A stretch of 64,000 nucleotides of DNA from an uncultured Muribaculaceae bacterium (GTDB lineage Bacteria > Bacillota_I > Bacilli_A > RF39 > UBA660), in NCBI GenBank assembly GCA_964371025.1, contig CAYJKH010000001.1:2077-66076 (forward strand), given 5' to 3'. The first letter of the stretch is position 1, and every line of letters starts with the position of its first letter. A program made the position numbers and the translations under genes. Positions 472-10,117 of this stretch are shown piece by piece. Under the pieces are notes generated by a model. It ran no database searches. It was not told the origin of the DNA and was given only the letters and a program-made list of their open reading frames with translations.

Positions 472-1091
472 AAATATTATACTTAGATACATCTTCTGAT
501 TTTTTATACACAGGAATTGTGGAAAGTAATAAATTAATATGTGAAATAAAAAAAGAGTTCGGTCAAAATATTTCAGAGGTATCTATGATAGAAATTTCTG
601 AAATGTTTAAAAAAAATAAAATATTACCAACAGATATTAATAAAATTATTGTTGTTAATGGTCCTGGTTCATTTACTGGTATTAGAGTAGGGGTTACTAT
701 AGCGAAAACTTATGCTTGGAGTTTAAACATTCCTATAATTACAATATCTTCAATGGAAGCAATGGCTATTTCAACGAATACAAATAAATATAAAATTCCA
801 ATACTAGATGCTAGAAGAGATTTTGTTTATGCCGCTATTTTTGATAGTAATGATAACATAGTTTATAATATAAACCACATATTATTATCTAATATATTAG
901 CTATATCAAAAGAGTTAAAAGATTTTGAATTCATTAGTAATGATGTTTTTAATAAAGTTTCTATTACTAAATATAATCCAGATATTTTAAAAATAGTGGA
1001 AAAAGTTAAAAATAAAGAAGAAACTAACCCTCATGCAGTAAATCCTAATTATTATAAAAAAACAGAAGCAGAGGAAAAAGAGAATGCTTAA
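468..1091 (+). CDS. tsaB: tRNA t6A biosynthesis protein TsaB (YeaZ family)
   Basis: Kae1/YeaZ fold motifs LYLDTS, GPGSFTGIRVG; position between tsaE and rimI. Confidence 0.85.
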   Translation: MKILYLDTSSDFLYTGIVESNKLICEIKKEFGQNISEVSMIEISEMFKKNKILPTDINKIIVVNGPGSFTGIRVGVTIAKTYAWSLNIPIITISSMEAMAISTNTNKYKIPILDARRDFVYAAIFDSNDNIVYNINHILLSNILAISKELKDFEFISNDVFNKVSITKYNPDILKIVEKVKNKEETNPHAVNPNYYKKTEAEEKENA

Positions 1092-1470
1092 AGAGGTATT
1101 AAAAGATAATTTTAGTATAGAAAACCATGATGATATGTTAAATAATATTAAAGATGATTTTATAAATAATCCATATGGAAAATTAATAGTATATGAAGAA
1201 GAAACTATTATAGGATATTTATATTATAGTCTTATTTATGATAGAATTGAAATTAATCAGATAGAAGTAAAAGAAAAATTTCGTAACTTGAAAATTGCTT
1301 CTAAGCTAATGGAATACTTAGTTAATTTAAATAGTAGTAATATAACATTAGAAGTAAGAATAGATAATATACCAGCAATTAAACTATATGAAAAATACAA
1401 TTTTAAAAATGTTGCGATTAGAAAGAATTATTATAAGGATTGTGACGGAATTTTAATGATAAGGGAATAA
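1084..1470 (+). CDS. rimI: ribosomal-protein-alanine N-acetyltransferase (GNAT)
   Basis: GNAT-like 128-aa protein in the canonical tsaB-rimI-tsaD position; overlapping start. Confidence 0.7.
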   Translation: MLKEVLKDNFSIENHDDMLNNIKDDFINNPYGKLIVYEEETIIGYLYYSLIYDRIEINQIEVKEKFRNLKIASKLMEYLVNLNSSNITLEVRIDNIPAIKLYEKYNFKNVAIRKNYYKDCDGILMIRE

Positions 1471-1520
1471 TAGTATTATTTTCTTTTTTTTGATATAATA
1501 GAGATAGAAAGAGTGATTTT

Positions 1521-2525
1521 ATGAAAGAAATTTATGTTTTAGGAATTGAAAGTAGTTGTGACGAGACAAGTGTAGCAATAGTTAAAAATGGAAATGAGGA
1601 AATAGCAACAGTTATATCTTCTCAAATAAATATCCATAAAAAATATGGAGGAGTAGTTCCCGAAATTGCTAGTAGACATCATATTCAAAATATTAGTATT
1701 GTAATAGAAGAATGTTTAGAGCAAGCGAATATGTCAATAAGGGATATAGATGCAATAGCTGTAGCTTATGGTCCTGGATTAATTGGATCATTACTAATAG
1801 GATTAGAAGCTGCTAAAACATTAAGTTTTGTTCATAATATTCCATTAATTCCAGTACATCATATTGCTGGACATATATACGCAAACAATTTAGTAAAAGA
1901 AATGGAATTTCCACTTTTAGCGCTTGTTGTAAGTGGGGGACATACTGAAATTATAAAAATGAATAATCATTATAATTTTAAAAAATTAGGGGCAACTTTA
2001 GATGATGCTATTGGAGAATGTTATGATAAAGTGGGAAGAGTTTTAAATTTAGAATATCCAGGAGGTCCTAAAATAGATAAGTTAGCAATACTTGGAGAGC
2101 ATACATATAATTTGCCTGTGCCTCTTCAAGATAATACTTATAATTTTTCTTTTAGTGGATTAAAGAGTGCAGTTATTAATTTAGTTCATAATGAAAAACA
2201 AAAAAATAAAGAAATAAACCAAGCAAATCTAGCAAAATCTTTTCAAGAAGTAGCATTAGCATCTATAATAAATAAAATAAGAAAAGCAATAGTAAATGAA
2301 AATATTACTAACGTGGTAGTAGCAGGAGGTGTAGCTGCTAATAGTGGTTTAAAAAATAAATTAACTAAATTAGCAGAAGAACAAAATGTTAATCTTACAA
2401 TTCCTCCAATTAAGTATTGTACAGATAATGCTACAATGATAGCAGCAGCAGGATACTTTGCTTATAAAAATGATAAAGTTTCAGATTTATCATTAAAAGC
2501 AAAATCAAGTGATATCTTGTGTTAG
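1521..2525 (+). CDS. tsaD: tRNA N6-adenosine threonylcarbamoyltransferase TsaD (Kae1/YgjD)
   Basis: GIESSCDETSVAI N-terminus, HHIAGH metal-binding motif, GGVAAN; 334 aa; RBS AAAGAG upstream. Confidence 0.9.
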   Translation: MKEIYVLGIESSCDETSVAIVKNGNEEIATVISSQINIHKKYGGVVPEIASRHHIQNISIVIEECLEQANMSIRDIDAIAVAYGPGLIGSLLIGLEAAKTLSFVHNIPLIPVHHIAGHIYANNLVKEMEFPLLALVVSGGHTEIIKMNNHYNFKKLGATLDDAIGECYDKVGRVLNLEYPGGPKIDKLAILGEHTYNLPVPLQDNTYNFSFSGLKSAVINLVHNEKQKNKEINQANLAKSFQEVALASIINKIRKAIVNENITNVVVAGGVAANSGLKNKLTKLAEEQNVNLTIPPIKYCTDNATMIAAAGYFAYKNDKVSDLSLKAKSSDILC

Positions 2526-2532
2526 GAGTAAT

Positions 2533-2829
2533 ATGAATCTTATTGATCAGTATAAAATTTTGATTAGTGCATATTATGGGATATTAGAACTGGATGAATA
2601 TGATTTAAAATTATATTTATTGAAGGAAATAGAAGAATATATAAAAGATTATATAAAGCAAAATCCTATACCTAATTTGGATGAGTCATTAATAAAGGCA
2701 GAAGTTGAGAAAAAAGAAATGGATCGTAAACTGCAAGATGCTTTATTAACAGTTCCTAAAGTGACAAATAATATTGAACCAATCATTATCATTAAGCAAA
2801 AGTTAAGCAATTTAAAAAGAACTATTTAA
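2533..2829 (+). CDS. hypothetical small protein (start moved to ATG 2533 behind AGGAG RBS)
   Basis: ORF track 2509-2829; internal ATG at 2533 has RBS AGGAG 7 nt upstream; no recognisable domain; followed by a strong terminator. Confidence 0.4.
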   Translation: MNLIDQYKILISAYYGILELDEYDLKLYLLKEIEEYIKDYIKQNPIPNLDESLIKAEVEKKEMDRKLQDALLTVPKVTNNIEPIIIIKQKLSNLKRTI

Positions 2830-2853
2830 TTTAATTAAATAGTTCTTTTATTT
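2817..2853 (+). terminator. rho-independent terminator
   Basis: perfect 15-bp inverted repeat aagaactatttaatt/aattaaatagttctt followed by TTTTATTT. Confidence 0.7.
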
Positions 2854-2940
2854 ACACTTTTTTCTAAAATAAATGTAAAACTATTGATAGAAAAAAAAAT
2901 ATATGTTATTCTTAATAAGAATAAAGGATAGGTGAAGAGG

Positions 2941-3525
2941 ATGAATATAAGAAAAATGGCTATAGTAGCAGTATTACTTACAGTGTTTACTTTGGGTATA
3001 TCATATGCAAGTTTAAGTGTAATCTTAAACATTAATGGTACAGCTCAAGTAAGAGCAGCAAATTGGGATGTTCATTTTGAAAATTTAAGTGCTCCATTAA
3101 CAGAAGGCTTAGTACTAGTTAATGTTGAACCAACCTTAATTAGCAATTCAACTTCATTTTCAGACTTAAATGTAACATTTAATAGGACTAATTCAAGCAT
3201 TACTTATAATGTTGATTTAGTAAATGATGGAGATATTGATGCTCAAGTAAATAATGTTACTAGTACTACACCTTTATGTAATACAACATCAGTTGTTGCA
3301 GTTCCAAGTAATGCGGAACAAGATAAACAAGATGTTTGTAATGCTATCTCTCACTCTGTAAAGTATACAGCAGATGGGAGTGATGTAGCAATCGGAGATG
3401 ATTTACTTGCCGGTGAATCAAAAGAAGTAGCTATTAAAATCAATTATGCAGGTACTAATTTACCACTTAATGTAATTAGTATAAACAACTTAGAGACAGC
3501 TATAGGTTTTAGTCAAAAACCATAA
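2941..3525 (+). CDS. small exported protein with N-terminal signal anchor, paralog A (possible SipW substrate / TasA-like minor subunit)
   Basis: Lys/Arg N-terminus, hydrophobic segment, then ...SYASLSV...ANWDVHFENL. Shares the WDVHFENL block and overall architecture with the next ORF. Lies directly upstream of a SipW-type peptidase gene. Start placed at ATG 2941 behind AAGGATAGGTGAAGAGG. Confidence 0.55.
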   Translation: MNIRKMAIVAVLLTVFTLGISYASLSVILNINGTAQVRAANWDVHFENLSAPLTEGLVLVNVEPTLISNSTSFSDLNVTFNRTNSSITYNVDLVNDGDIDAQVNNVTSTTPLCNTTSVVAVPSNAEQDKQDVCNAISHSVKYTADGSDVAIGDDLLAGESKEVAIKINYAGTNLPLNVISINNLETAIGFSQKP

Positions 3526-3555
3526 AAATAAATAAAAAAGAGAGGAATTATAATT

Positions 3556-4146
3556 ATGAAAACAGAAAGAAATTTAAAAATATTAGTAATAGCAGCTATT
3601 ACTATAGCAATTGGAGGATTATCAATTGGATTTGCTGCATTTAGTAGAACACTAACAATTACAGGAGCAGAGGCTACAGTTAATAGTTCAAGTTGGGATG
3701 TACACTTTGAAAATTTAGTACCATCAACTACAGGAACAGCTACTACTACTGGAGGGTCTATCACACCAACTAATTCTACTAGTATTACAGGAATTGATAT
3801 GACACTTACATCTCCTGGAGATTCAGTAACTTATACTTTTGATGTAGTAAATGGTGGAGATTTTGATGCAATTGCTACTACTCTTAATATTGATACACCA
3901 ACATGTGTAGGGTCAGGAGTAAACGCAACAGTTGATGCAACAAATGTATGTAATAATTTAGAGTATACGTTAACTTATGCTGACGGATCAGATATTTTAA
4001 CTACACCTAGTTTAACAACAGCAGAAGGTACAAAAAGTATGAAATTAACATTAACTTATTCTAATGCTATAACAGCTGATCAATTACCAGCTTCAGCAGT
4101 TACAGTTTCAGATTTAAATGCATCAATTTTATATTCTCAAAACTAA
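3556..4146 (+). CDS. small exported protein, paralog B, with AAFS motif after the signal h-region (SipW-cognate-like)
   Basis: MKTERNLKILVIAAITIAIGGLSIGFAAFSRTLTITG: h-region followed by AAFS, reminiscent of the TasA/CalY AAF(N/S)D SipW-cognate signal; SSWDVHFENL block shared with paralog A; RBS GAGAGGA. Confidence 0.55.
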   Translation: MKTERNLKILVIAAITIAIGGLSIGFAAFSRTLTITGAEATVNSSSWDVHFENLVPSTTGTATTTGGSITPTNSTSITGIDMTLTSPGDSVTYTFDVVNGGDFDAIATTLNIDTPTCVGSGVNATVDATNVCNNLEYTLTYADGSDILTTPSLTTAEGTKSMKLTLTYSNAITADQLPASAVTVSDLNASILYSQN

Positions 4147-4240
4147 TATAAAATAAAATTAAGTAGGTGATAGTATTAAAAAGAGCTATATAAAAATTTT
4201 TCTACTATTTAGTACATTACTAGGATTAATATTAGCTAAT

Positions 4241-5305
4241 ATGTTTCTTTTTAAAAATGAAAACATATATATAATAGCTTCTGTAATAGCTCTTTTTTTA
4301 CTTTTAACAAAAGTATTAATTGGGATTGAAAGAAATAGAAGTAGATTAAAAAGTGAAGCAGTAATGAATGTATTTATATACGTAATGCTTTATCATATTA
4401 TATTATATATTTTAGGTATTTTTATAGGATTTACTAAATCACCTTATAGTTTTTCTATTATAAATTTAATTAGAAATATTACTCCAGTTTTATTAATAAT
4501 TGGATTAACAGAAGTATTTAGATATGCAAATGTAATTAAGAGTGAAAAAAGTAATAAATTATTATTATTTGTAACTATTGTTTTAATAATGTTAGATATT
4601 ACAGTTAAAACAAGTATGTATAATTTAGATGTAAGTACTAATTTATTAGAAATAGCATCTTTAGTAATATTACCAGCTATTGCAAATAATATTTTTTTAG
4701 GATATTTGGCGCTTTATTTTGGATGGGCTCCAGCTATATTATATAGAGTATTAATGGAAATACCGGAATATATAATTCCTATTTTACCAAATACTAATGA
4801 ATATTTAGATGCAATAGTAACCTTTTTATTTCCACTATTATTATTACTGCTATTTTATAGACTATTAAATAGAGATAAAAAAGATAAAAGTCCACTTAAG
4901 AAAAACTATTTTGGAATAGTAGTTACTAGTGTTTTAGTTATTATTACAGTATTTACAGTTGGTTTAACTAGTGGGTTATTTAAATATTATATGATAAGTA
5001 TAGGTTCAGGCTCGATGGAACCAAATATTTATGTGGGGGATTCAATAATTGTAAAAAAAGAAGATAATTTAAAAAATATTGAAATAGATGATATATTAGT
5101 TTTTAATCATAATAATTCTACAGTTGTTCATAGAGTAACTAGAATTATGGAAAAGAATAGTAGTTATGAATTTATAACAAAAGGAGACAATAACGAAGAA
5201 GAAGATAACTGGGTTGTTTCTGAAAAAGATGTTATAGGGACTGCAGAATTAAAAATAAGATACATTGGATATCCTACCATATGGTTAAATGAAAAGATTA
5301 ATTAG
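4241..5305 (+). CDS. sipW: signal peptidase I, SipW/archaeal-eukaryotic type (S26B), fused to a ~230-aa N-terminal polytopic membrane domain
   Basis: C-terminal ~120 aa carry all SipW boxes: GSGSMEP (catalytic Ser), VGDSIIV, VVHRVTRI (catalytic His), KGDNNEEED. N-terminal two-thirds is very hydrophobic with multiple predicted TM helices. Confidence 0.8.
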   Translation: MFLFKNENIYIIASVIALFLLLTKVLIGIERNRSRLKSEAVMNVFIYVMLYHIILYILGIFIGFTKSPYSFSIINLIRNITPVLLIIGLTEVFRYANVIKSEKSNKLLLFVTIVLIMLDITVKTSMYNLDVSTNLLEIASLVILPAIANNIFLGYLALYFGWAPAILYRVLMEIPEYIIPILPNTNEYLDAIVTFLFPLLLLLLFYRLLNRDKKDKSPLKKNYFGIVVTSVLVIITVFTVGLTSGLFKYYMISIGSGSMEPNIYVGDSIIVKKEDNLKNIEIDDILVFNHNNSTVVHRVTRIMEKNSSYEFITKGDNNEEEDNWVVSEKDVIGTAELKIRYIGYPTIWLNEKIN

Positions 5306-5319
5306 AAAGGGTTTATAAT

Positions 5320-6444
5320 ATGGCAAAAAAGATAACGTATAAAAGTAATGATAAAACATTTCATGTGCATTTGAGTTCAAAAAGAATAAGGAAATCAATT
5401 AAATTTGGATTTTTTCTTGTTGCGTCTATAATTTTTGTTGTATTATTTGCATTTTTCATTCTTAAATTAATTAGCACAAGTAATTCAGTATCAGTAGTTA
5501 CTTTTAATGAAAAAGGAACGGAAACATATAGAGTTTACTTAAAAGAAAATGATGACTATAAATCTGATTATCTAGGAGAAGATATGGAATATATATCATC
5601 TCTAATTGATTATGTTCAGTTTGATTATAATTATCAGTTGCACTCAAAAAATGAATTAACAATGGATTATAATTATAAAATTACAGCGGATTTAATTATT
5701 GCCAATAAAGAAGCTAATGGTAAGTACTTATATAAAGATACTTATGAATTAGAAAAAGGTAGTAAAAAAATAACTGATAAACAACTAATGATTTCAGATA
5801 GTGTTGAAATAGATTATGATAAATTTAATAAAATTTCTGAAGATATAAAAAAAGAACATGGTTTATATGCAGATAGTTATTTAGAAGTTAAATTTGAAAT
5901 GATTAATGACTCTACATCAAATGACGTGGATAATTCATTAAAAACAACTAATTCGTTGCTTGCAACTATCCCTTTAAATGAAATTACAATAGCAATTAGT
6001 ACTGCATCTAATACTTTTGATGAATCAAGAACAATTTCAAGAAAGAACTTAGAAGAGTTAATAAATTTGTATATGATTTTAGCAGGAGCATCATTCTTAT
6101 TAGCAGTAGTAAATGCATCTTTAGCAACTTATGTTTATCAAAAATATTATTCTAAAAAAGATATTTACTTAGCAACAGTAAAAAAATATTTAAGAGAATA
6201 TGATAGATTAATTGTTTCAAGTAAACAACCAGCTATTAATGAAAAACATTTTGAAAATAAAATAAGAGTAATGTCTATAGAGGAGTTAATTGATGCCCAT
6301 GATTCATCAGGAGCACCAATTATATACTATGAAGTAGAACCTAATGAAAAAAGTTACTTTGTTATTATAGATAATACAACATTATATAAATTAACAATTT
6401 CTAGAACATGGTTAGAAAATAATAAAAAAGACCCTATCGTTTAG
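5320..6444 (+). CDS. hypothetical membrane-anchored protein (two predicted TM segments), co-oriented with sipW
   Basis: N-terminal signal-anchor FGFFLVASIIFVVLFAFFIL and a second hydrophobic segment near residue 250; no recognisable domain. Confidence 0.45.
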   Translation: MAKKITYKSNDKTFHVHLSSKRIRKSIKFGFFLVASIIFVVLFAFFILKLISTSNSVSVVTFNEKGTETYRVYLKENDDYKSDYLGEDMEYISSLIDYVQFDYNYQLHSKNELTMDYNYKITADLIIANKEANGKYLYKDTYELEKGSKKITDKQLMISDSVEIDYDKFNKISEDIKKEHGLYADSYLEVKFEMINDSTSNDVDNSLKTTNSLLATIPLNEITIAISTASNTFDESRTISRKNLEELINLYMILAGASFLLAVVNASLATYVYQKYYSKKDIYLATVKKYLREYDRLIVSSKQPAINEKHFENKIRVMSIEELIDAHDSSGAPIIYYEVEPNEKSYFVIIDNTTLYKLTISRTWLENNKKDPIV

Positions 6445-6458
6445 GGCTTTTTTATTTT
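6430..6458 (+). terminator. weak rho-independent terminator
   Basis: CCCTA-tcgtt-TAGGG hairpin followed by CTTTTTTATTTTT; overlaps stop codon. Confidence 0.45.
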
Positions 6459-6500
6459 TGAAAAAATGGTATAATATAGTAGAAATAAAAGGAGTATATT

Positions 6501-7718
6501 ATGTTACATTTAAGAAAAGATTTTCCCGTATTAATAAATAATCCAGAATTAATTTACTTTGATTCAGGAGCAACTACACTAAAACCACTACCAGTAATAG
6601 AAGCAGTTAATAATTTTTATAATTTGTATACTGCCAATGTTAATAGGGCGAGTTATAAGAGTGCTAATATAGTATCAAAAATGTATGAAGATACTAGAGG
6701 AAAAGTTAAAGAATTTATCAATGCTAAAAGTATAAAAGAAATAATTTTTACATCAGGAGCTACTCATAGTTTAAATACAATTATCGATGGATATTTGGAG
6801 GATATAATAAAGGAAAATGATGTAGTACTTACTACTTTTTTTGAACATTCTTCTATGATTTTACCACTGTTTAGATTAAGAGATAATACAAAATGTTATA
6901 TTGAATATATTCCAGTAGATACTAATAATAAAATTAATTTAAATAGTTTAGAAGAAACACTTGAAAAAAGGCAGGTTAAAGCAATATGTTTATCCCATAT
7001 TTCAAATATTTTAGGAGTTATTAATGATATTGAAAAAATTGTGGAAATAGCTCATCGAAATAATGTTATTGTAATATTAGATGCTACACAATCAGCTCCT
7101 CATATAGAGATTGATGTGCAAAAATTAGATATTGATTTTATGGTGTTTTCATCACATAAAATGTTAGGCCCTTCAGGGCTTGGTATACTTTATGGAAAAG
7201 AAACAAAATTACTTGAAGTAAGACCTTTAATAGTAGGTGGTGGAGATAATATTAGATATGATAAAGATTTTAATGTTATATTTAAAGGATTACCACACAA
7301 ATTAGAAGCAGGAACTCCTCCAATTGAACAAGTTTTAGGATTTTCATCAGCTATTGATTATTTATCTAGTATTGGTATGAATAATATAGAAAAGTATGAG
7401 AAAGAATTATCGGAATATTTAATTTTAAAATTAAAAGAACTTAAAAATATAAATATAATAAATGAAAATAGTGAATCAGGAATAGTATCATTTAGTATTA
7501 AAGATATCTATTCTGAAGATGCAGTTAGTTACTTTTCTAAGCATAACATTAATATTAGAGGAGGATCTCATTGCGCAAAACTTATTAATAATATTACAGG
7601 AAATGATGATTATTTAAGAATAAGTTTATATTTTTATAATACATTTGAAGAAATAGATAAGTTTATTTTAATTGCTAAAGATATTACTTTAGAAGATTGT
7701 ATAGAGAGTATAATATGA
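6501..7718 (+). CDS. sufS: cysteine desulfurase (class V aminotransferase, SufS/Csd-like)
   Basis: FDSGATTLKP N-terminus, PLP-lysine region SSHKMLGPSGLG, catalytic-Cys loop RGGSHCA; 405 aa; followed by sufU. Confidence 0.8.
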   Translation: MLHLRKDFPVLINNPELIYFDSGATTLKPLPVIEAVNNFYNLYTANVNRASYKSANIVSKMYEDTRGKVKEFINAKSIKEIIFTSGATHSLNTIIDGYLEDIIKENDVVLTTFFEHSSMILPLFRLRDNTKCYIEYIPVDTNNKINLNSLEETLEKRQVKAICLSHISNILGVINDIEKIVEIAHRNNVIVILDATQSAPHIEIDVQKLDIDFMVFSSHKMLGPSGLGILYGKETKLLEVRPLIVGGGDNIRYDKDFNVIFKGLPHKLEAGTPPIEQVLGFSSAIDYLSSIGMNNIEKYEKELSEYLILKLKELKNINIINENSESGIVSFSIKDIYSEDAVSYFSKHNINIRGGSHCAKLINNITGNDDYLRISLYFYNTFEEIDKFILIAKDITLEDCIESII

Positions 7719-8152
7719 ATGTAGTAGAAAAAAGAGAAATTATTTATAAAAATATAAAAAACAGTGAATTTAGAGGTTTATTAAATAAAGGTGATTACAT
7801 ATTAGTTGAGGAAAATATTGATTCATGTATGGATACAATTTTTTTAGAAGTTAAAATTGAAGATTCTAAAGTAGAAGATATTCATTTTGATGGAAAAGCA
7901 TGTTCTATTGCATTAGCATCAACATCGATACTATGTCAAACAGTAATAAATAAATCATTAGATGAAGTTAATGTAATATTAGAAAATTATAGTAATATGC
8001 TAAATGGGGAAGATTATAAAGAAAGTATTTTAAATGATTTAGTAGTGTTTAGAGATATTTATAGACAAGAAAATAGAGTTAAATGTGCATCTATGGGAAT
8101 GTATGGATTACTAAAAGCTATTAAAATTTATCATGAAAATAAAAGTAATTAA
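7715..8152 (+). CDS. sufU: Fe-S cluster assembly sulfur-transfer/scaffold protein SufU (IscU-like N-domain)
   Basis: Cys ligand pattern (SCMDTIF..., DGKACSIALAS...) typical of SufU/NifU-N; ATGA overlap with sufS stop at 7715-7718. Confidence 0.7.
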   Translation: MNVVEKREIIYKNIKNSEFRGLLNKGDYILVEENIDSCMDTIFLEVKIEDSKVEDIHFDGKACSIALASTSILCQTVINKSLDEVNVILENYSNMLNGEDYKESILNDLVVFRDIYRQENRVKCASMGMYGLLKAIKIYHENKSN

Positions 8153-8226
8153 AATAGTGAATAATATTTGCTATTTTTTTAGTTTTATGTTATTATATAG
8201 ACCAAGTTTATTGCATGGAGGAAATT

Positions 8227-9477
8227 ATGAAAAAAATGTTTAAAATATTATTAATTATCGTTGTTTTTACAACAACTTTTATTGGAGTTATTCCAAGTGT
8301 TAGTGCTAAAGCACCAGCATCAGTTCAAGCAGGGGATGCAGAAAGATTAACACCACATATTGGAGGAGTTTCTTTTTCATATAAAACTTTATCTAATGGA
8401 GAATATGCTTATTGTTTAGAAGTAAAAAAAGGATTAACGCAAAATATAAAAGCAAATTTAGTAGGGGAATTAGATGCTGGATATGCATATATAGTAGCAA
8501 ATGGTTATCCAAATAAAAAAATAACTGGTAACAGAAACTACGATTACTCTATTACTCAAATAGCATTATGGCTTTATATGGACGAAACTAGTGGAACAGA
8601 TAATTTAGCATCTGGTTTTAGAAACAATGCAAGTGATCCTTATAATTTAATGTCACATGTTATCAAATTAACAGATGCAGCAAAAGCAGCAAAAGCAAAA
8701 GGGTATGCTAAACCTAGTATCAGTCTTTCAACACCTACATCTAGTATGAGCATTAGTGAAGATGGTAAATATTTTATTTCTAATCCTATAACACTAGGAG
8801 GAACATCTGTTTCATCGCCTAAAGTATCAATTGTAAGTAGCCCAGAGGGGACTATTATTACAGATGAAGAAGGAACTGAAAAAAAAGAATTTAAAATAGG
8901 GGATAAGTTTCTTTTAAAAACACCAGTAGAAAGTGTTACAGGAGAAGACGTTACCATTAATATTAAAACAAGTGGAACAGGTACAGTATATAAGGCTTAT
9001 GAATATAGCCCGGTAAATAATAATATGCAAAATATTGTACCACAATTAATTCCTGTAAGTACTGCAGTAGCAGATGAGGCTAGTTTTGACTTTTCAACAA
9101 CAACTGTTGTTATAAATAAAACGGATGCCTCAACTAAAAATTATTTAGCTGGAGCTGAATTAGTTATCAAAAAAGACGGGGTTGAAATAGATAGAATAAC
9201 TACAACAGGGGAAAAAATAGAAATTAAAAATTTAGGATATGGTAATTATACTATTGAAGAAGTTAAAGCACCTAATGGATATGAATTAACTACTAAAATA
9301 TATGAGTTTACTTTATCAGAGGAAAATCCTACGGCAGAAGTTACGATTGAAAACTTTCCAACTATAGAAGTACCAAATACTAGCAGTAGTTCAACATTAC
9401 TTCTATCATTAATAGGGTTTTTAATAATTTCATTCTCAGCAGGAATTATTTATAGACATGCAAAAGCAAAAAACTAA
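8227..9477 (+). CDS. cell-wall-anchored adhesin with thioester domain (TED) and CnaB-like domain; non-canonical sorting signal VPNTS
   Basis: Signal peptide. Cys in YAYCLEVKKG paired with the Gln motif SITQIALWLYMDE (TQxA(I/L)W thioester hallmark). C-terminal TIEEVKAPNGYEL (CnaB-like). C-terminus VPNTS + hydrophobic stretch + RHAKAKN. Start at ATG 8227 behind GGAGG. Confidence 0.7.
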   Translation: MKKMFKILLIIVVFTTTFIGVIPSVSAKAPASVQAGDAERLTPHIGGVSFSYKTLSNGEYAYCLEVKKGLTQNIKANLVGELDAGYAYIVANGYPNKKITGNRNYDYSITQIALWLYMDETSGTDNLASGFRNNASDPYNLMSHVIKLTDAAKAAKAKGYAKPSISLSTPTSSMSISEDGKYFISNPITLGGTSVSSPKVSIVSSPEGTIITDEEGTEKKEFKIGDKFLLKTPVESVTGEDVTINIKTSGTGTVYKAYEYSPVNNNMQNIVPQLIPVSTAVADEASFDFSTTTVVINKTDASTKNYLAGAELVIKKDGVEIDRITTTGEKIEIKNLGYGNYTIEEVKAPNGYELTTKIYEFTLSEENPTAEVTIENFPTIEVPNTSSSSTLLLSLIGFLIISFSAGIIYRHAKAKN

Positions 9478-10117
9478 TAAAAGAAAAGAATTCTCCCCAA
9501 ACACTATAGCAATATTTGGTTCAATATTAGCTATTTTAGGAGGATTTTTTCTTTCATATAATTATTTAGAAGAAAAAAAAATATATGCTCATGATCAAAT
9601 GGGGAATTTATTATACAAAGAGGAAGAACCAAAAGAAACTGTTGTAGAAGAAAAAGAAGAGGAAGTAGAACCTGTTCAAGAAGAAGTAAAAGTAGAAACT
9701 ATTGTTAACAAAAATGAATATTTAGGGTATTTAGAGATACCAAAAATTAATTTATTAAAAGGTTTTTATGATAAAACTTCTCCACTAAATGATGTGGAAA
9801 AAAATATTATGGTAATGCCAGAATCGTCATATCCGGATGTTGACCGAGGAAACTTAATTATTTCAGGTCACTCTGGAACAGGGTGGAAAGCATTTTTTGA
9901 CAACTTAGAAAAGCTTAATAAAGGTGATGAGTTAATTGTTAAATATAATAACAAAAAGTATACATACCAACTTACTAATATCTATGAAGTAGAAAAAGAT
10001 GGAACTGTTGCAATATATCGTAATTATAATAAAACAACTTTAACTTTAATCACGTGTACAAATAATATAGACACTTCACAAAGTATTTATATAGCAGAGT
10101 TAATATCTGTAGAATAA
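9458..10117 (+). CDS. sortase (TLxTC catalytic motif)
   Basis: N-terminal TM, YLGYLEIPKINL, active-site His in LIISGHSG, catalytic Cys in TLTLITCTNN; immediately downstream of the TED adhesin. Confidence 0.8.
   Translation: MQKQKTNKRKEFSPNTIAIFGSILAILGGFFLSYNYLEEKKIYAHDQMGNLLYKEEEPKETVVEEKEEEVEPVQEEVKVETIVNKNEYLGYLEIPKINLLKGFYDKTSPLNDVEKNIMVMPESSYPDVDRGNLIISGHSGTGWKAFFDNLEKLNKGDELIVKYNNKKYTYQLTNIYEVEKDGTVAIYRNYNKTTLTLITCTNNIDTSQSIYIAELISVE

Follow-up and report, generated by a model that had tools for sequence, protein, structure and literature searches.

A four-gene operon of an uncultured gut Bacilli lineage is likely to encode an AbpX-type fibre of the TasA superfamily with its own signal peptidase

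A stretch of 64,000 nucleotides (nt) from the genome of an uncultured bacterium (contig CAYJKH010000001.1, GenBank assembly GCA_964371025.1; hereafter the window, meaning the whole stretch that was analysed) has a G+C content of ~25 % and holds an operon that may encode an extracellular protein fibre together with the signal peptidase that processes its subunits. Four co-directional genes form the operon, encoding two related exported proteins (subunits A and B), a signal peptidase, and a membrane protein of 374 amino acids (aa), and the intergenic gaps are 14-30 nt when the peptidase gene is read from position 4175. In the positions of the window, these genes and the parts of the peptidase are:

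2941..3525, + strand: subunit A, AbpX-like exported protein, 194 aa from ATG 2941 (profile E 1e-56)
3556..4146, + strand: subunit B, AbpX-like exported protein, 196 aa (family profile, AlphaFold2 model, hhalign)
4175..4885, + strand: N-terminal polytopic domain of the peptidase, residues 1-237, eight predicted helices, predicted CPBP/Rce1/SpdC-like fold
4907..5305, + strand: membrane anchor helix (residues 245-266) and endoplasmic reticulum (ER)/archaeal-type signal peptidase I catalytic domain
5320..6444, + strand: DUF5305 membrane protein, 374 aa (PF17231, hydropathy)

The gene order proposed in the original prediction, namely two paralogous exported proteins, then a peptidase and then a 374-aa membrane protein, is present at the locus (the last protein having two hydrophobic segments), and so are the sequence motifs which that prediction had pointed out: WDVHFENL occurs in both A and B, AAFS occurs in B (as part of GFAAFS, after the hydrophobic region), and the peptidase boxes SGSMEP, HRV, and KGDNN are found as GSGSMEP, VHRV, and TKGDNN. 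The start proposed for subunit A, ATG 2941, matches the starts of its orthologues; an in-frame GTG at 2932 is an alternative, and ATG 2941 is the better choice because A-like orthologues begin with MN[VI]K... at this position. Along their entire length, the two subunits have 33 % identity (BLASTP E 1e-28). In A, the signal peptide (2941-3009) has a predicted cleavage site SYA↓SLS and is followed by a donor-strand-like segment, SLSVILNINGTAQV, at 3010-3051; in B, the signal peptide (3556-3636) has a predicted cleavage site GFA↓AFS and is followed by a proposed donor strand, AFSRTLTITGAEATV, at 3637-3681. The proteins end in ...GFSQKP (A) and ...LYSQN (B) and carry no C-terminal anchor. Mature A and B have isoelectric points (pI) of 4.05 and 4.16, and Asp and Glu make up 9.5 % and 11.1 % of their residues, compared with ~15 % in AbpX. 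A cysteine pair of B, C117/C132 (window 3904-3951, with an equivalent in A), flanks the sole helix of the subunit core and is kept in 111 of 133 subunits; it probably forms an extracellular disulfide, which would be notable for organisms that are assumed to be strict gut anaerobes.

A word-indexed search with the subunit retrieved 55 relatives, all of which are free of Pfam domains. When a profile of 49 family members was used, 9,590 cluster representatives were matched at E <= 1e-3 and 1,108 at E <= 1e-30 (clusters at 50 % identity), and the top profile matches listed are mostly proteins of ~200 aa that align end to end. Giant proteins of 2,500-6,400 aa (P0056, P0061, P0121, P0146, and P0191) match the subunit core (~55-171) 16-48 times. 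A sandwich core with the PGD...N.G motif is common to the subunits and to DUF11/CARDB-type repeat proteins, and since the giant repeat proteins share this core, the count of 9,590 is inflated. When the same profile was compared with all PDB sequences, the best match was AbpX of Pyrodictium abyssi (9sj2_C, E 4.4e-4; 9rhp, E 0.025), a protein that polymerises by donor-strand complementation and has been placed in the TasA superfamily (bioRxiv 10.64898/2026.01.04.697558). We then aligned the subunit family with an alignment of full-length AbpX and four homologues (a search with an AbpX fragment gave only five close archaeal homologues), and hhalign linked the two at 95.9 % probability (E 6e-9, 163 columns) from the signal peptide to near the C-terminus, with 23 % identity. 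In this register, AbpX A54↓Q55 falls on A27↓A28 of B, and AbpX W56, L60, and L62 fall on F29, L33, and I35; the AbpX donor strand Q-W-S-E-T-L-S-L is aligned with A-F-S-R-T-L-T-I of B, and the signal peptides end in TYA↓Q in AbpX and GFA↓A in B.

Conservation within the family is concentrated in the same region. Only M1, L33, I35, and N99 are invariant in the 49-sequence alignment, and L33 and I35 sit just past the hydrophobic region, within the proposed donor strand. For 133 subunits, which come from 86 loci, the cleavage site lies in the consensus [G/A/S]-[F/Y]-A↓[A/S]-[F/L/M/Y]-[S/T]-x-T-L-x-I-x-G, with Ala at -1 in 124 of the subunits, Gly, Ala or Ser at -3, and Phe, Leu, Met or Tyr at +2 (Phe or Tyr in 79); the small residues at -3 and -1 fit the requirement of type I signal peptidases (SPase I). 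In the AlphaFold2 model of B (predicted local distance difference test score, pLDDT, 91.6), a helix (2-29) is followed by a segment outside any sheet (30-48) and a beta-sandwich (49-195), and the top Foldseek match of this model in the PDB is the TasA fibre (probability 0.99, E 2e-3). Matches of the family to Peptidase_M73 (the Pfam family of TasA and camelysin) are weak and below threshold (19 of the 49 relatives, best 1.3e-4), and a few of these relatives weakly touch SipW-dependent NCBIfam families. The profile alignments place A and B among the AbpX-like proteins of the TasA superfamily and outside the TasA family itself.

Several other assignments were considered and rejected. Membership of A and B in the TasA family proper was dismissed because the family aligns with TasA at only 9.5 % probability in hhalign and A and B have no Peptidase_M73 match. 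Type IV pilins were dismissed since the hydrophobic segment of A and B lies ahead of the conserved motif and position +5 is not Glu, and sortase-assembled pili since A and B have no C-terminal LPXTG and the sortase encoded at 9458-10117 pairs with a different protein. A camelysin-type metalloprotease was also dismissed, no HExxH being visible in the translations of A and B.

The peptidase gene was listed as 4241-5305, an open reading frame that is 22 residues short compared with homologues and whose frame is open upstream to 4163. An ATT codon at 4175 lies 22 codons upstream of the first ATG (4241), with a Shine-Dalgarno sequence, AGGTGAT, at 4165-4171. Translation from 4175 gives IKKSYIKIFLLF, which lines up with the MKKSYIKI... 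N-termini of homologues. On this ground and given the Shine-Dalgarno sequence, the gene very probably starts at ATT 4175, and residue numbers of the peptidase refer to the resulting 376-aa protein. A database entry that is identical over 94 % of the query (P0199, 354 aa) starts at ATG 4241 and does not include helix 1; this first membrane helix is present in all homologues of the fused peptidase, and a start at ATG 4241 would be expected to delete it, alter the membrane crossings, and misplace the catalytic domain across the membrane. In the catalytic domain, S280 (GSGSMEP), H319-R320, D338 (KGDNN), and D344 are invariant among 55 homologues. The protein scores 82 bits with TIGR02228 (cut-off 51.85), 33.7 bits with the bacterial-type model TIGR02227 (under its cut-off of 47), and 77.8 bits with the SipW equivalog NF046067 (cut-off 190), and a profile search against PDB sequences gave E 3.8e-18 for SEC11C versus E 3.6e-3 or weaker for bacterial (E. 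coli-type) SPase I. By these scores, the peptidase is of the ER/archaeal type (S26B; SipW/SEC11 class), that is, of the same class as SipW without being its orthologue, and the earlier view that it does not belong to the housekeeping LepB type holds.

The catalytic domain makes up only part of this enzyme. Homologues of the fused peptidase are uniformly 370-395 aa long, and their ~240 N-terminal residues form a polytopic membrane protein. In the AlphaFold2 model of the peptidase (pLDDT 89), eight helices are followed by a basic loop, the anchor helix 245-266 and the catalytic beta-domain, giving 8 + 1 membrane helices plus a short C-terminal helix. In this predicted structure the membrane domain has the eight-helix CPBP fold and is nearest to SpdC; a profile search against PDB sequences returned nothing for this domain. 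Residues G81, G85, E113, R116, P202, Y210, and P220 of the membrane domain are invariant. A 380-aa peptidase adjoining an archaeal AbpX homologue (locus L087) was aligned with the family by hhalign at 99.5 % probability (E 2e-22), and the alignment spans the greater part of the membrane domain with the ExxR motif formed by E113 and R116, implying that the fusion is a shared feature of AbpX loci. The original prediction was right that a peptidase and a membrane protein are encoded here, both of which are real, and it missed both the fused ~240-residue membrane domain and the DUF5305 identity of the fourth gene product. AbpX loci have been reported to carry an SPase I with 'ten transmembrane helices' together with DUF5305, and the terms CPBP, Rce1, CAAX, and SpdC are absent from the text of that report (bioRxiv 10.64898/2026.01.04.697558).

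It could be argued that a domain with this fold is an active second protease, which would degrade the signal peptide or would trim, or immunise against, a secreted peptide. E113 and R116 indeed lie in helix 4, at the site of CPBP motif 1 (EExxxR), and D141 and N172 in the next two helices are near-invariant. Yet CPBP proteases need two histidines beside the catalytic Glu, their sequence motifs being EExxxR, FxxxH, and HxxxN, and there is no invariant histidine in the membrane domain of the 55 homologues, none of which is matched by PF02517; SpdC, the best structural match, is a non-catalytic partner of the hydrolase SagB (in part according to the PDB title of 6u0o). With both catalytic histidines of CPBP proteases missing, the membrane domain is by analogy likelier to serve in docking without catalysis, as SpdC does, and we consider a second protease rather improbable.

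The fourth gene lies directly downstream of the peptidase gene, and its product matches PF17231 (E 4.2e-11, 43 bits, cut-off 29). Hydropathy predicts a first transmembrane (TM) segment at ~30-48, an extracytoplasmic domain, a second TM segment at ~250-270, and a cytoplasmic C-terminal domain. DUF5305 proteins, which are sometimes fused to the peptidase, have been proposed as SPase I accessory proteins in Tafi and AbpX loci (including bioRxiv 10.64898/2026.01.04.697558), and by analogy the fourth-gene product is a putative signal-peptidase accessory subunit.

The arrangement was then compared among 80 related loci, taken from one genome per species and almost all belonging to metagenome-assembled genomes (MAGs) of uncultured gut Bacilli from human, ruminant, rabbit, and chicken. 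The fused peptidase adjoins AbpX-like genes in 59 of the 80, bearing out the expected co-occurrence of subunits and peptidase across genomes, and a DUF5305 gene is directly downstream in 58 of these 59. In total, 58 of the 80 species-level loci show the order subunit(s), fused peptidase, and DUF5305, and the arrangement is therefore not due to chance. Flanking genes vary between genomes, suggesting that the module moves as a unit. Complete loci have one to five small subunits (one in 26 loci and two in 21), and in the closest relatives the A-like gene is upstream of the B-like gene.

If the peptidase were a housekeeping signal peptidase that lies by chance next to two proteins exported in abundance, one would expect A and B to be routine Sec substrates or membrane proteins with an uncleaved signal anchor. 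It is the sole S26 peptidase within the 64-kb window, beyond which the rest of the genome is outside view, and gut Bacilli genomes are assumed to be probably small, both of which would fit such a role. What we found is that the pairing with AbpX-like genes in 59 of 80 loci persists whatever the flanks, that it also occurs beside the archaeal AbpX homologue, that the cleavage motif is class-specific and conserved, and that one locus (L072) carries two complete subunit-peptidase-DUF5305 sets, as is partly visible in another (L073), all of which makes a housekeeping role highly improbable. In L072, the two modules are located on one stretch at 626-3450 and 6001-9351, and in L073 the second copy is cut by the locus end. 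Two other loci (L025 and L026) have two groups of subunit genes and a single peptidase-DUF5305 pair. Orphan AbpX-like subunit genes, with ~6 kb on each side lacking peptidase and DUF5305 genes, were observed in L021, L034, L039, L040, L055, and L058; these subunits presumably rely on a module elsewhere in the genome. The record titles of module-bearing MAGs among L007-L086 include 'uncultured Muribaculaceae', 'Paludibacteraceae', 'Bacteroidaceae', 'Acidaminococcus fermentans', and 'Saccharibacteria', which are probably labelling or binning errors and not the true hosts.

Besides the small subunits, 27 loci encode an extra protein of 330-1,200 aa that shares only the signal and the donor-strand N-terminus with them (...[GS]-[YF]-[SA]-A-[FL]-x-x-x-L-x-I...), after which the sequences diverge. 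Such genes were seen downstream of DUF5305 in L001 (8956-10338), L004 (10016-13603), L059 (9037-12051), L074 (9074-11974), and ~20 other loci. On the basis of this shared N-terminus, the large proteins are candidate tip adhesins or anchors that might join the same polymer.

Considering these results, we favour the reading that the operon builds an AbpX-type fibre of the TasA superfamily, with a probability of roughly 75 %. A and B would be exported via the Sec pathway by their N-terminal signal peptides, and the ER-type peptidase of the operon would cut after [G/A/S]-[F/Y]-A, between A27 and A28 in B and at SYA↓SLS in A. This cut would free the N-terminus A-F-S-x-T-L-x-I-x-G, the most conserved segment of the family, and the freed amphipathic strand could then be inserted into the following subunit, whose beta-sandwich is incomplete (donor-strand complementation), so that an extracellular fibre would form. 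The CPBP-like domain and DUF5305 may hold the hydrophobic helix of the substrate and position the catalytic domain, in the manner of a scaffold or docking module. The genes found in single-subunit loci are B-like, so the major fibre subunit is probably B, with A as a minor or accessory one. A dedicated peptidase would make sense because substrates with a bulky or aromatic P2' residue (aromatic in A↓AF of TasA and A↓QW of AbpX) are poorly cleaved by LepB-type enzymes; in a published study, the aromatic P2' residue of TasA is stated to block LepB, and TasA to be cleaved by SipW (PMC10269814). In its outline, a dedicated SipW-class peptidase encoded with its own TasA-like subunits, the original prediction is supported by the AbpX homology, the TasA-fibre Foldseek match, the ER-type catalytic domain, and the conserved synteny.

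Several observations weigh against an AbpX-type fibre. In the Pfam and NCBIfam scans no model matches A or B, including TIGR04088 and Peptidase_M73, the two families with which the original prediction had proposed to compare the small proteins; at E <= 1, TIGR04088 matches neither A and B nor the 49 relatives, and Peptidase_M73/NF046066 matches neither A nor B, while the TapA model (TIGR04087) reaches 12.8 bits against a cut-off of 80. The alignment of the family with B. subtilis TasA (the sequence used was verified to be identical to 8aur) covers only the PGD...N.G motif, which also agrees with the earlier remark that the substrates show no obvious similarity to TasA. Subunit A carries Leu at +2 and hence has no aromatic P2'. 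The CPBP relationship is one of predicted structure, with PF02517 unmatched, and the window operon has no large tip- or anchor-like subunit. Finally, an acidic residue at mature position 4 of AbpX serves as a calcium ligand (bioRxiv 10.64898/2026.01.04.697558). This position is R31 in B and Val in A, and it is acidic (Glu) in only 14 of 133 relatives; as neither this acidic ligand nor an acidic content of 15 % is found in A and B, calcium-triggered assembly should not be assumed.

Some of these observations would also suit a different fate of the subunits, in which the dedicated peptidase processes A and B yet both remain monomeric secreted or surface proteins, for example adhesins, coat proteins associated with the wall, or binding proteins that use an Ig-like sandwich. 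Non-filament DUF11/CARDB-type repeats also have the core motif PGDxxxYxFxxxNxG (TIGR01451 is matched by 20 of the 49 relatives), the subunit profile also matches the giant repeat proteins, and the window has no gene for a tip or anchor subunit. However, it is the N-terminal strand freed by cleavage, and not the core, that forms the most conserved segment; this strand falls on the AbpX donor strand that was defined by experiment, in the monomer model it lies outside the sandwich, and the larger proteins share only the signal and this strand with the subunits, as expected of co-polymer subunits. We therefore regard monomeric proteins as improbable and retain the AbpX-type fibre. A more far-reaching version of the fibre reading, which we consider unlikely, is that the fused peptidase and DUF5305 constitute a pilin 'polymerase' platform analogous to an usher or a pilus sortase, in which the CPBP-like cavity (E113, R116) would capture the signal helix and cleavage would be coupled to hand-over of the donor strand to the fibre. 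If true, such a platform would be widespread in uncultured gut Bacilli, as the 1,108 clusters (50 % identity) matched at E <= 1e-30 indicate.

Three further features lie at the ends of the operon:

2815..2849, + strand: AT-rich inverted repeat, terminator-like, then TTTTATTT (read directly from the sequence)
2884..2912, + strand: promoter-like site TTGATA, 17-nt spacer, TATTCT, with TG before the -10 hexamer (consensus match)
6432..6446, + strand: terminator-like hairpin, then CTTTTTTATT (terminator scan)

The inverted repeat has 15-nt arms (2815-2829 and 2835-2849) and a TTTAA loop; it marks the 5' boundary of the operon and closes the upstream gene, and it falls outside the listing of the terminator scan, which needs at least 3 G-C pairs. 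The hairpin at 6432-6446, with its T-run, overlaps the DUF5305 stop codon and marks the 3' boundary; the scan found three terminator-like sites where 0.5 were expected. The site at 2884-2912 is a consensus match only, the total of promoter-like matches in the region being not above that in shuffled sequence. By inspection of translations, the upstream neighbours are tsaE/tsaB/rimI/tsaD-like, and the downstream neighbours are a cysteine desulfurase and a SufU-like gene. With housekeeping genes on both flanks and terminator-like elements at both ends, the operon is a self-contained four-gene unit between two terminator-like hairpins. An Rfam scan of the whole window gave no family at gathering score, with no tRNA, rRNA, riboswitch or T-box and no c-di-GMP riboswitch upstream of the operon. 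A surface-protein pair is encoded at 8215-10117, 1.8 kb downstream of the operon, and consists of a class C/D-like sortase (9458-10117) and a protein of 420 aa, which combines a thioester domain (TED), a SpaA-type domain, and a weak anchor of the LPXTG type. The 420-aa protein has an ordinary signal peptide without an AbpX-like N-terminus, and it is therefore probably unrelated to the fibre operon; LPXTG anchors and sortases have been noted near bacterial abpX loci (bioRxiv 10.64898/2026.01.04.697558).

In Bacillus biofilms and in several archaeal ones, fibres of the TasA superfamily form the protein scaffold. Our data place the AbpX branch of this superfamily, complete with its polytopic signal peptidase and DUF5305 partner, in uncultured host-associated Bacilli (with MAG labels such as Bacilli, 'Tenericutes', and 'Mycoplasma sp. 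CAG'), where it is apparently common. We know of no characterised surface structures in these gut Bacilli, for which the operon offers concrete candidates for gut attachment or matrix building, and the compact four-gene version could be reconstituted. The CPBP/SpdC-like fold provides a testable idea of why the system needs its own peptidase and what DUF5305 assists, and the absence of the calcium-ligand residue predicts that the assembly trigger in this clade is unlike that of P. abyssi AbpX. The original prediction had further seen in the operon a new kind of system, which does not stand: loci in which AbpX-like subunits occur with DUF5305 and a polytopic SPase I, some of them in Bacillota, were described in January 2026 (bioRxiv 10.64898/2026.01.04.697558). 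The operon is a compact and divergent bacterial member of the AbpX-type systems, and what is new here is modest, namely the predicted CPBP/SpdC-like fold of the membrane domain and the size of an un-annotated subunit family in gut Bacilli.

Compared with known systems, the operon most resembles the AbpX loci of P. abyssi and its archaeal and bacterial homologues, with which it shares a homologous subunit, a cleavage site and N-terminal strand in the same register, a pI of ~4, a dedicated TIGR02228-type SPase I with a large polytopic domain, a DUF5305 gene, and paralogous minor subunits. It differs in that the window subunits are very divergent (23 % identity in the profile alignment), lack the conserved acidic Ca2+ ligand at mature position 4 and are less acidic (9.5-11 % vs ~15 %), the peptidase has nine predicted TM helices instead of the ten reported, genes for a tip, an anchor or a regulator are absent from the operon, and the hosts are uncultured gut Bacilli and not thermophiles or Clostridia. 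The tapA-sipW-tasA operon of B. subtilis likewise pairs the genes of its fibre subunits with one for a dedicated signal peptidase of the ER/archaeal type; the TasA cleavage site, TWA↓AFND (checked against 8aur), has the same form, A↓AF, as GFA↓AFSR of B, and the donation of an N-terminal strand (which we infer for B) and a beta-sandwich core with PGD...N.G are further likenesses. Unlike that operon, the window one shows no significant TasA similarity (hhalign 9.5 %) and has no TapA; to our knowledge, SipW has no fused CPBP-like domain and tapA-sipW-tasA has no DUF5305 gene. The haloarchaeal Tafi system (the TafA/TafE pilins, TafD, and the DUF5305 protein TafG) also combines donor-strand pilins of the TasA superfamily with a multi-TM S26 peptidase and DUF5305, whereas its subunits are exported by the Tat pathway (the signals of A and B are of the Sec type and contain no twin-arginine motif) and TafD has four TM segments with an N-terminal catalytic domain. 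In contrast to the S. aureus SpdC (LyrA)-SagB pair and to Rce1 (CPBP/Abi), the window protein fuses both parts, its hydrolase is a signal peptidase, and its membrane domain has neither detectable PF02517 sequence similarity nor the CPBP histidines. S. pyogenes SipA/LepA, which is needed for pilus polymerisation, lacks catalytic residues and serves sortase-assembled pili, whereas the window enzyme keeps Ser, His, and Asp and its substrates carry no LPXTG.

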